Assembly (NCBI RefSeq): GCF_001598795.1
Contig: NZ_BCZP01000003.1
Location: 1-32,000 of the forward strand
DNA: 32,000 nt
Reading direction: 5' to 3'
Source: Delftia acidovorans NBRC 14950
GTDB lineage: Bacteria; Pseudomonadota; Gammaproteobacteria; Burkholderiales; Burkholderiaceae_C
Of the stretch, positions 6,764 through 17,775 are shown in pieces (positions within the stretch are counted from its first letter, which is position 1; each line of letters begins with the position of its first letter). The notes below the pieces were generated by a model, which was given only the letters and a program-made list of their open reading frames with translations, was not told the origin of the DNA and searched no databases. The position numbers were made by a program, and so were the translations under genes.

Positions 6764-7566
6764 GGCTTGCGCTGGGCGACGATGAACAGGCGGGGAAAGG
6801 CCAGCAGGCGCCGGCCGTCGGCGCGCACGCCGTAGGCGGCGTCCACGCGGTTTTCGTATTCGGTGAGGAAGTCGGCCTGCAGGGCTTCGGGCAGGCCCTC
6901 GACGAAGGGCTTGAGGCCGGTGCCGCGCAGCCACTGGACGATGGCGCCGGCCGAGTCCATCGGATGCTGGTAGACGGTGTGCCAGACATCGACGGCGCCG
7001 GCCTCGACGCCGGCCTGCTCCTGCGGGCCGGCCAGCAGGTCGTAGTAGCTGCGGATGGGCAGGATGTCGGCCCGCACCTTGGCGGCATCGCCGATGTAGG
7101 CGGCAAACTTGGGCAGGCTGGCGATCTCGCGCATCACGCGGTGCGTGGCTTCCTGCCGGTTGTCGGGCATCTGTATCGCCAGCACGCCCCCTGGCGCCAG
7201 TTGGGCGAACAGGCGGGGTATCAGCGTTTCATGCTCCCCCACCCACTGGAGGGAGGCATTGGCATAAATCAGGTCGGGAGCGCTCTCGCCGGGGGCGGGC
7301 GTCCAGGAAGCAATGTCGGCCAGCGCGAAGCGGGCCTCAGGCAGATGCTGGCGCGCGGTGGCCAGCATCGCCTGGGAGTTGTCTATGCCGGTGATCGTGG
7401 CACCGGCATAGCGCTGTGCAAGCAGCTCGGTGGAATTGCCCGGCCCGCATCCCAGGTCCACCACATGGCGGGCCTGGGCCAAGGGCACACGCGCCAGCAG
7501 CTCGGCTGCGGGGCGCGTACGCTCATTGGCGAAACGCAGGTAAAGCGCGGGATTCCAGTCGAGCAT
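6760..7566 (-). CDS. tam: Trans-aconitate 2-methyltransferase
   Basis: The N-terminus [29 protein letters not shown]...[15 protein letters not shown] closely matches the enterobacterial Tam N-terminus as I remember it, and it carries the SAM-binding motif DLGCGPG. Start chosen at ATG 7566; the ORF extension to 7779 overlaps mdh. Confidence 0.85.
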
Positions 7567-13428: not shown

Positions 13429-14739
13429 ATGAAACTCGCAGACAACAAAGCAACGCTGTCATTCAGCAACGGCGCTCCCAGCGTCGAGCTGCCCGTCTAC
13501 CAGGGCAACGTCGGTCCCGACGTGGTGGACATCCGCAAGCTGTACGCGCAGACCGGCATGTTCACCTATGACCCGGGCTTCCTCTCTACCGCCTCGTGCC
13601 AGTCCGCCATCACCTACATCGATGGCGACAAGGGCGAGCTGCTGTACCGTGGCTACCCCATCGAGCAGCTGGCCAAGAACTGCGACTACCTCGAGACCTG
13701 TTACCTGCTGCTGTACGGCGAGCTGCCCAACGAGTCCGAGAAGGCCGACTTCGTCGAGCGCGTGACCAAGCACACCATGGTCAACGAGCAGATGCAGTTC
13801 TTCCTGCGTGGTTTCCGCCGTGACGCCCACCCCATGGCCGTCCTGACGGGTCTGGTCGGCGGCATGTCGGCCTTCTACCACGACAACATGGACATCAACA
13901 ACGCCGAGCACCGCGACATCGCCGCGATCCGCCTGATCGCCAAGATGCCCACGCTGGTCTCCATGGCCTACAAGTACGGCATCGGTGCTCCGTACATGTA
14001 CCCCAAGAACGACCTGAGCTACGCCGGCAACTTCATGCGCATGATGTTCGGCAACCCCTGCGAGGAGTTCAAGGTGAACCCCGTGGTCGAGCGCGCGCTG
14101 GACCGCATCTTCATCCTGCACGCAGACCACGAGCAAAACGCCTCCACCTCCACCGTGCGCCTGTGCGGCTCGTCGGGCACCAACCCCTTCGCCGCCATCT
14201 CGGCCGGCGTGGCCTGCCTGTGGGGTCCTGCCCACGGCGGCGCCAACGAAGCCTGCCTGAACATGCTGGAATACCTGCAGGCCAACGGCGGCGTTGCCAA
14301 GGTCGGCGAGTTCATGGAACAGGTCAAGGACAAGAACAGCGGCGTCAAGCTGATGGGCTTCGGCCACCGCGTCTACAAGAACTACGACCCCCGCGCCAAG
14401 CTCATGCAGGAAACCTGCAATGAAGTGCTGGCCGAACTGGGCCTGGAAAAGGACCCCCTGTTCGCCCTGGCCAAGGAAGTCGAGAAGATCGCCCTGGAAG
14501 ACGACTACTTCGTGCAGCGCAAGCTCTACCCGAACGTGGACTTCTACTCCGGCATCGTGCAGCGCGCCATCGGCGTGCCCGTGAACCTGTTCACCGGCAT
14601 CTTCGCCCTGGCCCGCACCGTGGGCTGGATCGCCCAGCTCAACGAGCAGATGGCCGACCCCGAGTACAAGATCGGCCGTCCCCGCCAGCTGTTCACGGGC
14701 TCCGTGTCCCGCGACGTCAAGCCGATCGGCCAGCGCTGA
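13429..14739 (+). CDS. gltA: Type II citrate synthase
   Basis: 436 aa. Motifs [15 protein letters not shown] and [25 protein letters not shown] about 8 nt upstream of ATG 13429 (the ORF track opens at TTG 13423). Confidence 0.97.
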
Positions 14740-14771: not shown

Positions 14772-14804
14772 AAAAGCCCCATGCCTTTGCATGGGGCTTT
14801 TTTC
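14772..14804 (+). terminator. Rho-independent terminator of the sdh-gltA operon
   Basis: aaaagccccatgc (14772-14784), cttt loop, gcatggggctttt (14789-14801), running into a T-tract (14798-14803). Confidence 0.9.
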
Positions 14805-14943
14805 ATTTGCGAGCCCACCGCTCCAGAAGGCCACACCAGTCCTAGGAACACCATTTTCCCTATCGTGGCATGCCCATTGATTGAGCCTATCCACCTTAAG
14901 GTGACCGTTGACCCTCCCTCAAACGGAATGGAGCCGCAGCGCA

Positions 14944-15642
14944 ATGCCCGCTGCCATTCAACGCAACCCCGGGACTCACATGCTTGTCGAAATCAACAAG
15001 GACGGAATGCTCATCCATGCGCGCGTCAGGAACGCGCGCAGCCCCGCCATCGAGAGAGGAAAGCGGACCGCCGCCATCACCGGCATCGTCGTGCACCAGA
15101 CCGATGCCAACACGGCCCAGTCTTCGCTCAACAGCTACAGGAACCCGAAGGCCAATGGGGCACACTTCCTGATCGACAAGGACGGCACCATCTACCAGAC
15201 TGCGGCCATCTATCAGCGTGCCAACCATGTGGGCCCGCTGAAGGCGAGGTGCCTGCTTGTGGGGAAATGCAAGGCCAGGGACTATGAAGGACTGAAGGCA
15301 AAGGGGGTACACCGCATCGAGATGCTGAAGGCTCCTGGTGAACGCTATCCGAGCAATATGGAGGCCATAGGTATCGAGATGGTCGGCCGAGCGGAGTTGC
15401 CGAAGGGGTTCAAACCTTCCTCCAACGAAGCGGATTTGCCCCCCGAGAGATTGCGAGGAGAGCGCGGCCTCTATCCCGCCCCGACCCAAGCTCAGAACCG
15501 GTCACTGACATGGCTTGTTGAAGCACTGCAGGACTCCATGCAACTGTCGCCCGGTGAAGTCTTCAAACATCCCGAGGTAAGTTGGAAAAATCTGACCGAA
15601 GCAGAAGGTGCAAACTGGAACCTTCCTACGAACACACCATGA
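14944..15642 (+). CDS. Leaderless N-acetylmuramoyl-L-alanine amidase, Amidase_2 (PGRP/AmpD/T7-lysozyme) fold; putative antibacterial cell-wall effector
   Basis: Motifs ITGIVVHQT (first Zn His, codon 15094-15096), GAHFLIDKDGTIYQ, ANHVG, AIGIEMVG and FKHPEV (His codon 15568-15570, Glu at +10). No signal peptide. Low G+C. The start is uncertain: TTG 14908, ATG 14944 (GGAG 10 nt upstream) or ATG 14980. Confidence 0.75.
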   Translation: MPAAIQRNPGTHMLVEINKDGMLIHARVRNARSPAIERGKRTAAITGIVVHQTDANTAQSSLNSYRNPKANGAHFLIDKDGTIYQTAAIYQRANHVGPLKARCLLVGKCKARDYEGLKAKGVHRIEMLKAPGERYPSNMEAIGIEMVGRAELPKGFKPSSNEADLPPERLRGERGLYPAPTQAQNRSLTWLVEALQDSMQLSPGEVFKHPEVSWKNLTEAEGANWNLPTNTP

Positions 15643-16151
15643 AGTACCACCAATTTTTTTGGGCAATAACTTCAGCGATGGTCATGGCCTCAACGATTCA
15701 TGCTGCTGACGCCCGGTATTCTGCGAAGCACATCCAGAAAATCAATATCTTCGCCCCCTCATCAAGCAACCCCGCTTGGGAGGATAAAAAATGGCTCGAT
15801 TGCGACGATGTGATCCTGACCGAGGAGGATGTGCGATATGCATTGCAGCATATACGCCGAATTTCGGAAAAAGCCTACTTCAGCGAAGAAAACATGGATA
15901 GATCCGGATGCTCCGGAGGTGCGTCCGTCACGTTCAAGAGCGGAAAGATCATCGTCATGGATATCGAGCCAACAGGGCGAATCAGAATCTTCGAGGCGAA
16001 CAGGAAGCTTGAACCCCTTGGAGTGCCCTCACGCTACTACGACTGCGCTCCTTGCAACAAACGCAAGATGAACCTGCTGCAAGACGCCTTGGACCGCGCC
16101 ACGGAAAGGCGGCTCAAGGAGCTGAAAAGGCAGGGCCGGCTCCCGCCTTGA
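15639..16151 (+). CDS. Periplasmic (Sec signal) protein of unknown family; putative cognate immunity protein for the upstream amidase
   Basis: ATG 15639 overlaps the amidase stop (ATGA). The signal peptide is MKYHQFFWAITSAMVMASTIHA/AD, with no lipobox. 170 aa, 4 Cys in the mature part, charged helical C-terminus. It has the same low G+C as its partner. Confidence 0.6.
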   Translation: MKYHQFFWAITSAMVMASTIHAADARYSAKHIQKINIFAPSSSNPAWEDKKWLDCDDVILTEEDVRYALQHIRRISEKAYFSEENMDRSGCSGGASVTFKSGKIIVMDIEPTGRIRIFEANRKLEPLGVPSRYYDCAPCNKRKMNLLQDALDRATERRLKELKRQGRLPP

Positions 16152-16442
16152 GTCACGGTCTGGTCTTCTCTTGCGCGCCGGTTTCGGCAATGGCCCTGAC
16201 GCTTTATTCAACGCTTCGTGCGGCCGATGCCAGATAGCCGCTCAGGCACGCGCCACCGACCCGGCTGCAACGGCTGGCGGCCTGGTGAACGACCTGCTGG
16301 CCGGCTGCGCCGCCTGGCCTGAGCGCCGGGGCCAAGCCCCCTGCTTCACGCAGCAGCGCGGTTTCGCCGACAATGCCCCCCCGGCCCTCGTGGCCGGGCC
16401 TTCCATGCGCCGGGGTTCCGGCCCCAGCCACTCCTGCACACC

Positions 16443-17756: not shown

Positions 17757-17775
17757 GTTTTCCAGCCCGATCCGC

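Follow-up and report, generated by a model that had tools for sequence, protein, structure and literature searches.

The window analyzed here is a stretch of 32,000 nucleotides of Delftia acidovorans NBRC 14950 (positions 1 to 32,000 of contig NZ_BCZP01000003.1) and carries a two-gene cassette between gltA and a DEAD-box helicase gene. Gene 1 (14944–15642, plus strand) encodes a leaderless protein of the Amidase_2/PGRP fold—a predicted zinc amidase and the proposed toxin—and gene 2 (15639–16151, plus strand), assigned by alignment of homologues, encodes a four-cysteine periplasmic protein with a Sec signal, which is the proposed immunity protein. As judged by comparative genomics, the cassette is likely a horizontally acquired antibacterial toxin–immunity module, whose amidase would be injected into rival bacteria, most probably by a type VI secretion system (T6SS). 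An earlier note on this DNA had proposed an effector–immunity pair; the linkage of the two genes, their mobility, and relatives found in Rhs proteins and in a T6SS operon support this reading.

The cassette and its products

Behind the end of gltA (14739), an intrinsic terminator (14772–14801, plus strand) marks the upstream edge of the inserted islet; its 13-bp stem has 7 G–C pairs and is capped by a 4-nt loop, with a T-rich tail behind. The description of an ATGA-overlapped gene pair directly behind a strong gltA terminator is thereby confirmed. The low-G+C islet with the cassette spans 14810–16160 and has a G+C content of 0.48–0.53 compared with 0.62–0.72 in its flanks. The lowest G+C content of any 500-bp segment in the window is 0.498, from 15501, at a window mean of 0.664 and a standard deviation of 0.041; the hand counts of the earlier note (118/240 G+C for 15661–15900 and 40/60 for 13501–13560) are exact. 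Gene 1 has a G+C content of 0.582 and a G+C content at third codon positions (GC3) of 0.706, and gene 2 has values of 0.528 and 0.649, respectively. As previously claimed, the islet lacks the GC3 bias of the neighboring gltA (0.92) and helicase gene (0.877). The spacer of 290 bp between gene 2 and the helicase gene has a G+C content of 0.71 and, hence, the native composition is back directly after the gene 2 stop codon. The full open reading frame (ORF) of gene 1 spans 14908–15642 (244 amino acids). Translation likely starts at ATG 14944, preceded by a GGAG at a distance of ten bases, or at ATG 14980, which gives a 220-amino acid form as in Variovorax homologues. The stop codon of gene 1 and the start codon of gene 2 overlap in an ATGA read from the sequence (15639–15642, plus strand), which implies translational coupling of the two genes. 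A 4-nt or similarly short overlap of amidase and partner genes is also present in Variovorax, Paracidovorax, Chitinimonas, an Erwinia plasmid, and metagenomic loci.

Gene 1 has a size of approximately 25 kDa (approximately 220 amino acids) and matches the Pfam family PF01510 (Amidase_2) with an E-value of 2.3e-18 and 67.2 bits (cutoff 26) over residues 55–222 of the 244-amino acid ORF. The N-terminus is not hydrophobic and features no signal peptide, in line with the previous assignment as an Amidase_2 protein without an export signal. The AlphaFold model has a predicted local distance difference test (pLDDT) score of 95 and yields 47 PDB fold matches at E ≤ 1e-3, which are without exception AmpD, AmpDh2/3, AmiD, endolysin amidases, PGRPs, or T7 lysozyme. 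The TM-scores of these matches are 0.4–0.65 at an identity of just 12–21%, and the best ones—AmpD, AmpDh3/2, endolysins, and PGRPs—have E-values of 2e-6 to 1e-3. A sequence relative of gene 1 in the PDB was not found at E ≤ 0.01. Counted from ATG 14980, the residues H39, H62, H83, C91, C97, E114, N126, E133, H197, K203, and E207 do not vary across 71 homologues; C91 and C97 sit in a clade-specific insertion of approximately 35 residues. By inspection, H39 (VVHQT), E133 (GIE), and H197 with K203 (H-x5-K) fit the known motifs for zinc ligands (His, His, and Cys/Asp) and a catalytic Glu or Lys, and the same four residues fit the motifs in a partial alignment with an approximate T7 lysozyme sequence. 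The Pfam search of gene 1 revealed neither NlpC/P60, Tae4, or a related family—the papain-like Cys–His fold is not found—nor an XVIPCD, receptor-binding, or translocation domain. A diffusible bacteriocin was considered for gene 1 and rejected because it carries no receptor-binding or translocation domain.

Gene 2 begins with a signal peptide of approximately residues 1–22 (15639–15704, plus strand), and both the hydrophobic N-terminus and the A-x-A/A-D signal-peptidase site are kept in 74 aligned homologues. This agrees with the Sec signal, the cleavage near IHA/AD, and the missing lipobox that had been read from the single sequence. After signal cleavage, the mature protein has approximately 150 amino acids and features no C-terminal membrane anchor, no lipobox, and no second membrane segment. 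The cysteines C55, C91, C136, and C139 are invariant across the 74 homologues, and gene 2 is probably stabilized by two disulfides. The AlphaFold model (pLDDT 85) consists of a β-sheet domain followed by a long C-terminal helix. Gene 2 matches no family in Pfam, NCBIfam, or PHROG, and fold searches of the PDB and of viral proteins (BFVD) gave nothing meaningful, the best hits having E-values of 0.06–0.07 and a TM-score of at most 0.26; the earlier impression of a protein without a recognized family, thus, stands. No described immunity or inhibitor family was matched by sequence or by fold, and gene 2, having no Pfam family match, matches none of the Tai or Rap families. The possibility that gene 2 is a spanin or holin was rejected on account of its cleavable signal, its mostly β-sheet structure, the lack of a second membrane segment, its tandem copies, and the lack of a viral match. 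The leaderless gene 1 and the Sec-signal four-cysteine gene 2 could therefore meet only in a periplasm.

Linkage, mobility, and allelic divergence

The layout of a T6SS pair, that is, an effector without a leader beside a periplasmic partner, is found for gene 1 and gene 2, and the linkage is close to complete: In a metagenome scan, an ORF of the gene 2 family lies directly after the amidase in 74 of the 75 loci that have enough downstream sequence. The partner is present in one copy in 61 of these 74 loci, in two copies in nine, and in three copies in four. On the Variovorax-like metagenomic contig L169 (6001–7218), the amidase frame runs on to 7218 (approximately 405 codons) and is followed by a normal partner gene; the long frame may stem from a frameshift, from fusion to what was once the first partner copy, or from faulty assembly.

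The cassette occupies different loci in different hosts. In Variovorax paradoxus, it is located between an aldo-keto reductase and an acetyltransferase gene; Variovorax sp. YR750 carries it at two loci, one with three partner genes in tandem and the other with two. In Paracidovorax konjaci, in the metagenome-assembled genome (MAG) of contig L103, and in Chitinimonas prasina, the cassette sits amid housekeeping genes. Plasmids of Erwinia rhapontici carry the amidase with two small genes, which on one such plasmid form a tandem array of two partner copies, and one prophage from IMG/VR carries the cassette as opposite-strand cargo between the phage's own endolysin and a CI-like repressor. Amidases that share just 44 to 50% identity with gene 1 have partners that still enter the gene 2 family, via intermediates, in an iterative profile search, in which 0 of 1085 shuffled decoys were ever included. 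Before their own inclusion, the partners had E-values of 6.6e-7 (Paracidovorax), 2.9e-18 (Chitinimonas), 2.9e-10 (Erwinia), and 2e-31 (prophage). The direct hidden Markov model comparison of gene 2 with the Paracidovorax and Rhs-linked partners is weak (1.4 and −0.4 bits, hhalign P of 0.009–0.09), and the Paracidovorax partner is placed in the family through intermediate sequences. The G+C content of the cassette is below that of its flanks in most hosts: 0.57 compared with 0.68 in Delftia and Variovorax, 0.57 compared with 0.71 for the Paracidovorax amidase, and 0.38–0.41 compared with 0.58 on the Erwinia plasmid.

Within Delftia, the Delftia loci being drawn from contigs that encode the cassette proteins, the cassette is present at the gltA–helicase junction in every contig examined, with sharply different alleles. 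A 97% identical gene 1 is found in the same setting, between sdhCDAB-sdhE-gltA and the DEAD-box helicase gene, in several contigs, and these homologues are named Delftia acidovorans or D. tsuruhatensis at NCBI. Compared with the window, gltA of the Delftia strains has an amino acid identity of 99.8 to 100% and a synonymous divergence (dS) of 0.01, and the helicase an identity of 97 to 98% and a dS of 0.06–0.09. The corresponding values are 88 to 89% and 0.28–0.33 for gene 1 and 65 to 78% and 0.73–1.45 for gene 2. The ratio of nonsynonymous to synonymous divergence (dN/dS) is approximately 0.2 for both cassette genes (0.16–0.22 for gene 1); both are hence real genes under purifying selection. 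The high dS at this ratio argues for old functional alleles that are kept or exchanged at one site and against decaying DNA. In addition, one Delftia locus (L019) features two tandem gene 2 copies.

Outside Delftia, look-alikes of gene 1, gene 2, and the helicase were not found within 5 kb downstream of gltA in 80 genomes, among the matches listed. These genomes, mostly Burkholderiales and more distant than Delftia itself, include Curvibacter, Rhodoferax, Hydrogenophaga, Polaromonas, Variovorax, and Ramlibacter, with Comamonas badia as the only Comamonas and with no Delftia or Acidovorax among the matches listed. Among these genomes and the Delftia contigs, the cassette at the gltA–helicase junction is confined to Delftia. 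The presence/absence polymorphism that had been expected at the junction is, hence, borne out in part: The cassette is absent in the 80 other genomes listed, but within Delftia it varies by divergent alleles and copy number instead. Conservation in all relatives at native composition, which had been named as evidence against an acquired pair, is not observed, as the junction insertion is restricted to Delftia among the genomes listed and the composition is non-native in most hosts.

Delivery-system relatives and competing explanations

When 1.8 billion representative proteins were searched exhaustively with a profile, 1413 relatives of gene 1 were obtained; the domain content was inspected for the best 150 of these. 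Three of them (P0297, P0267, and P0327) feature an Rhs-associated core domain (TIGR03696, 60–89 bits at a cutoff of 32.5) that is followed at once by the amidase. This domain order is the one that is standard for Rhs polymorphic toxins. On the contig carrying P0297 (L102), the product of the gene overlapping the 3′ end of the Rhs–amidase gene is small and lipoprotein-like and has its cysteines in a similar pattern; the contigs of P0267 and P0327 are too short to show the downstream gene. Upstream of the same Rhs–amidase gene (L102, 2–1293), a second Rhs protein ends in a different, Cys/His-rich C-terminal domain, and its gene is followed by an ORF of 121 amino acids; the locus would then be made up of successive Rhs C-terminal toxin and immunity modules.

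A further amidase, 50% identical to gene 1 and accompanied by a partner of the gene 2 family, resides inside a T6SS core operon in two contigs (L181 and L180). The order is tssM-tagF-tssA-tssB-tssC-[amidase][partner]-orf130-orf142-tagJ-tssE-tssF-tssG, on one strand throughout, and the amidase–partner pair has native composition. The search for gene 1 homologues beside secretion genes, which the earlier note had suggested, has accordingly returned one pair inside a T6SS core operon and three Rhs C-terminal domains. Directly after this pair (L181, 7162–7991; also L180, 1654–2483), two small ORFs without a Pfam match are found in the operon: The first is leaderless, has 130 amino acids, and features a possible Cys/His pair (NTECVEF...GRHAAIY), and the second has 142 amino acids, a signal peptide, and several cysteines. 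By their sequences, these two ORFs look like a second, papain-like effector–immunity pair.

Several observations weigh against a T6SS-delivered toxin. In gene 1, no T6SS targeting motif is recognizable, and the usual third zinc ligand, a Cys or Asp two residues past the conserved Lys, is absent; its place may be taken by the invariant E207. T6SS, Rhs, PAAR, and adaptor genes are missing from the 32-kb window, as the earlier note had stated, and none lies within 6 to 10 kb in nine annotated stand-alone contexts (Delftia, three from Variovorax, Paracidovorax, the L103 MAG, Chitinimonas, the Erwinia plasmid, and the prophage). Most cassette copies, including that of the window, are far from any secretion gene. 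The link to a T6SS operon is one context only, in two contigs, and the link to Rhs consists of three fragments. The similarity of gene 2 to the Rhs-linked partner is marginal (E of 0.009–0.04 with the best decoy at approximately 0.06), and homology is not claimed. Other relatives of gene 1 are fused to TrbL/VirB6, LysM, or PG_binding_1 domains and, hence, the amidase clade is not used solely as a toxin. On the other hand, a T6SS is at hand in the genus, as Delftia acidovorans SPH-1 has T6SS genes according to a table in PMC4239648.

These points have to be set against three other explanations. According to the first of them, gene 1 is a housekeeping or stress amidase of the AmpD/AmpDh3 kind that acts in recycling or programmed autolysis, and gene 2 is a separate or regulatory periplasmic protein. 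AmpD and AmpDh3/AmpDh2 are indeed the best fold matches of gene 1, the cytoplasm is the default location of a protein without a signal peptide, most cassettes sit among housekeeping genes, and AmpDh3 is likewise cotranscribed with a small gene while its claimed T6SS role is disputed. However, gene 1 reaches just 20.1 bits against the equivalog NF008758 of NCBIfam for AmpD, a 1,6-anhydro-MurNAc-L-Ala amidase (cutoff 143), over a stretch of 26 residues only, and the PDB holds no sequence relative at the threshold given above. For a housekeeping enzyme, neither the foreign composition nor the different loci in each genus, the plasmids, and the prophage would be expected, nor a cassette dS that is 30 to 100 times the dS of the flanking genes, tandem arrays of the periplasmic partner, or an occurrence as an Rhs C-terminal domain or in a T6SS operon. 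This explanation is, therefore, regarded as quite improbable; the homologues are not consistently AmpD/AmiD-type housekeeping enzymes—the outcome that the earlier note had named as speaking against its proposal—as the Rhs- and T6SS-linked homologues indicate. A remnant of a phage lysis cassette, with an endolysin and, behind it, a spanin-like protein or another lysis accessory, would account for the matches of gene 1 to PHROG amidase and endolysin families (E of 1e-11 to 1e-6), for the solved endolysin amidases among its fold matches, and for the IMG/VR prophage fragment that carries the cassette. This prophage, though, has its own endolysin and bears the cassette on the strand opposite to the phage genes. 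A tblastn search of both proteins against 50,697 phage genomes gave no match, one close relative only was found in 2.9 million viral contigs, and the surroundings of the chromosomal copies are free of holin, terminase, and other phage genes. Gene 2 has neither a PHROG match nor a viral fold match, the PHROG matches of gene 1 reflect the fold only, and a tandem duplication of spanins would be unexpected; a lysis remnant is, thus, very unlikely.

The third explanation retains the toxin–immunity module but has it delivered by a route other than the T6SS, namely a bacteria-killing type IV secretion system (T4SS), outer-membrane vesicles, or release upon lysis. The absence of T6SS genes near most copies, the plasmid location of the Erwinia copies, and the relatives with TrbL/VirB6 fusions are in favor of such a route, as is one distant relative with an N-terminal match to XVIPCD, the Xanthomonas-type T4SS effector signal, at 21.3 bits and, hence, under the cutoff of 24.9. 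Gene 1 itself, however, lacks a signal peptide as well as any XVIPCD, receptor-binding, or translocation domain; at the operon level, a direct link was found to the T6SS only; and Rhs fusions in Proteobacteria are usually T6SS cargo. In addition, the size of gene 1 is within the range of known cargo carried by Hcp or VgrG. Delivery by such a different route is considered unlikely. The fusion relatives P0282 and P0316 are TrbL/VirB6 T4SS channel proteins with a C-terminal amidase of the gene 1 clade, which could serve as a built-in enzyme for opening the cell wall during T4SS assembly.

Proposed mode of action and relation to known systems

For a toxin–immunity module delivered by the T6SS, the following mode of action is proposed. 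Gene 1 would be made in the cytoplasm without a signal peptide, be loaded as a small cargo effector on a contact-dependent injection machine, most probably the T6SS, and reach the periplasm of a neighboring Gram-negative cell. There, it would cut the bond between N-acetylmuramic acid (MurNAc) and L-alanine in peptidoglycan, so that peptide stems and cross-links would be stripped from the glycan and lysis would ensue. Gene 2 would be exported by Sec to the producer's own periplasm, where it may bind and block amidase arriving from sister cells. The toxicity of gene 1, its neutralization by gene 2, the exact bond that is cut, and the T6SS route of the Delftia copy are inferred from the sequence comparisons described above.

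The closest known counterparts in gene layout are the Tae1–4/Tai1–4 pairs (such as Tse1–Tsi1 and Ssp1–Rap1a), in which a small leaderless cell-wall hydrolase lies directly upstream of a periplasmic immunity protein with a signal peptide. Further likenesses are immunity genes that are sometimes duplicated, a frequent occurrence as orphan modules off the main cluster, and an action in the target periplasm as proposed for gene 1. Those T6SS amidase effectors that are well established attack the peptide stem from within, as cysteine peptidases. Tae1–4 are papain-like NlpC/P60 cysteine endopeptidases cutting within the stem, whereas gene 1 is a predicted zinc enzyme of the Amidase_2/PGRP fold, for which a MurNAc–L-Ala cut is expected. 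In enzyme fold, the nearest counterpart is AmpDh3 (PA0807) of Pseudomonas aeruginosa, which gene 1 matches at E 1.4e-5 (4bxd), and which is likewise a leaderless Amidase_2 enzyme cotranscribed with a small downstream gene, PA0808. AmpDh3–PA0808 is listed as an effector–immunity pair of the H2-T6SS (PMC10281587). This precedent calls for caution: Its T6SS role has been contested by Colautti, Bullen and Whitney (2023; cited in PMC11582642 and PMC9998450), and AmpDh3 resides mainly in the cytoplasm (PMC9998450). Gene 1 differs from AmpDh3 by an identity of approximately 19% and by its separate clade with the insertion of approximately 35 residues and two invariant cysteines; gene 2 and PA0808 are set side by side by description only.

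The Rhs polymorphic toxins resemble the cassette in that P0297, P0267, and P0327 carry an amidase of the gene 1 type after the core, one of them with an overlapping gene for a small protein. Gene 1, in contrast, stands alone, without any Rhs, PAAR, or VgrG portion. No Amidase_2 toxin is listed in the polymorphic toxin domain catalogue of 2012: "PGRP" gives no match, and the sole mention of an amidase concerns FlgJ-like glycohydrolases (PMC3482391). TseP of Aeromonas dhakensis is a T6SS effector with amidase activity on peptidoglycan (PMC11893102); it is a larger two-domain chimera of amidase and lysozyme function and is set beside gene 1 by description only. The literature searched for Amidase_2/PGRP T6SS effectors describes Tae1–4, Tae5, TseP, and the disputed AmpDh3 and does not describe the gene 1 clade or the four-cysteine partner.

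Cell-wall effector–immunity pairs are, thus, a well-known kind, and within this kind the family of gene 1 and gene 2 appears to be new by sequence, a view taken because the searched literature describes neither the amidase clade nor its partner. The suggestion of an undescribed family in the earlier note holds for the clade and the partner; as a general idea, an Amidase_2 T6SS effector had been claimed before with the disputed AmpDh3–PA0808. On balance, the evidence leans slightly toward a widespread undescribed toxin–immunity family that combines an Amidase_2-fold zinc amidase—which would serve as unfused T6SS cargo, at the C-terminus of Rhs proteins, and possibly with type IV systems—with a dedicated periplasmic four-cysteine immunity protein whose fold is absent from solved structures. 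If this is true, the contested use of Amidase_2 enzymes as T6SS effectors would be settled, in a different system. It would also establish a second, mechanistically different attack on peptidoglycan, for which the one claimed MurNAc–L-Ala zinc amidase, AmpDh3, is disputed, and add an immunity protein of no known fold. Gene 1 and gene 2 form a compact, easily tested pair. The very old divergent alleles amid near-identical Delftia core genes, together with the two to three immunity copies of Variovorax, offer a clean natural example of an arms race in soil and plant-associated Comamonadaceae.

Further candidate genes are found close to some of the cassettes. In Paracidovorax konjaci (L014, 15454–16817, minus strand), another overlapping pair without Pfam matches is located approximately 5 kb from the amidase cassette and encodes a leaderless protein of 220 amino acids and a protein of 234 amino acids with an N-terminal membrane segment and a sequence reminiscent of Sel1-like repeats; it may be another toxin–immunity pair. 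In the L103 MAG, a gene of the Rap1a family (6969–7507, minus strand; PF18602, named T6SS amidase immunity protein in Pfam) lies 2.5 kb upstream of the amidase cassette and is preceded by an ORF of 70 amino acids, with no effector evident beside the Rap1a gene. In Delftia, the start of the helicase gene (region 16171–16442 of the window) differs between gene callers, which give 437 to 438 or 490 amino acids across contigs. Some Delftia strains carry an extra ORF of 300 to 333 amino acids without a Pfam match between the helicase gene and the AraC/DJ-1 regulator gene (L015, 10628–11629; L016, 10715–11617), where the gap in the window comprises only 19 bases (17757–17775). This gap is a second strain-variable spot beside the cassette.

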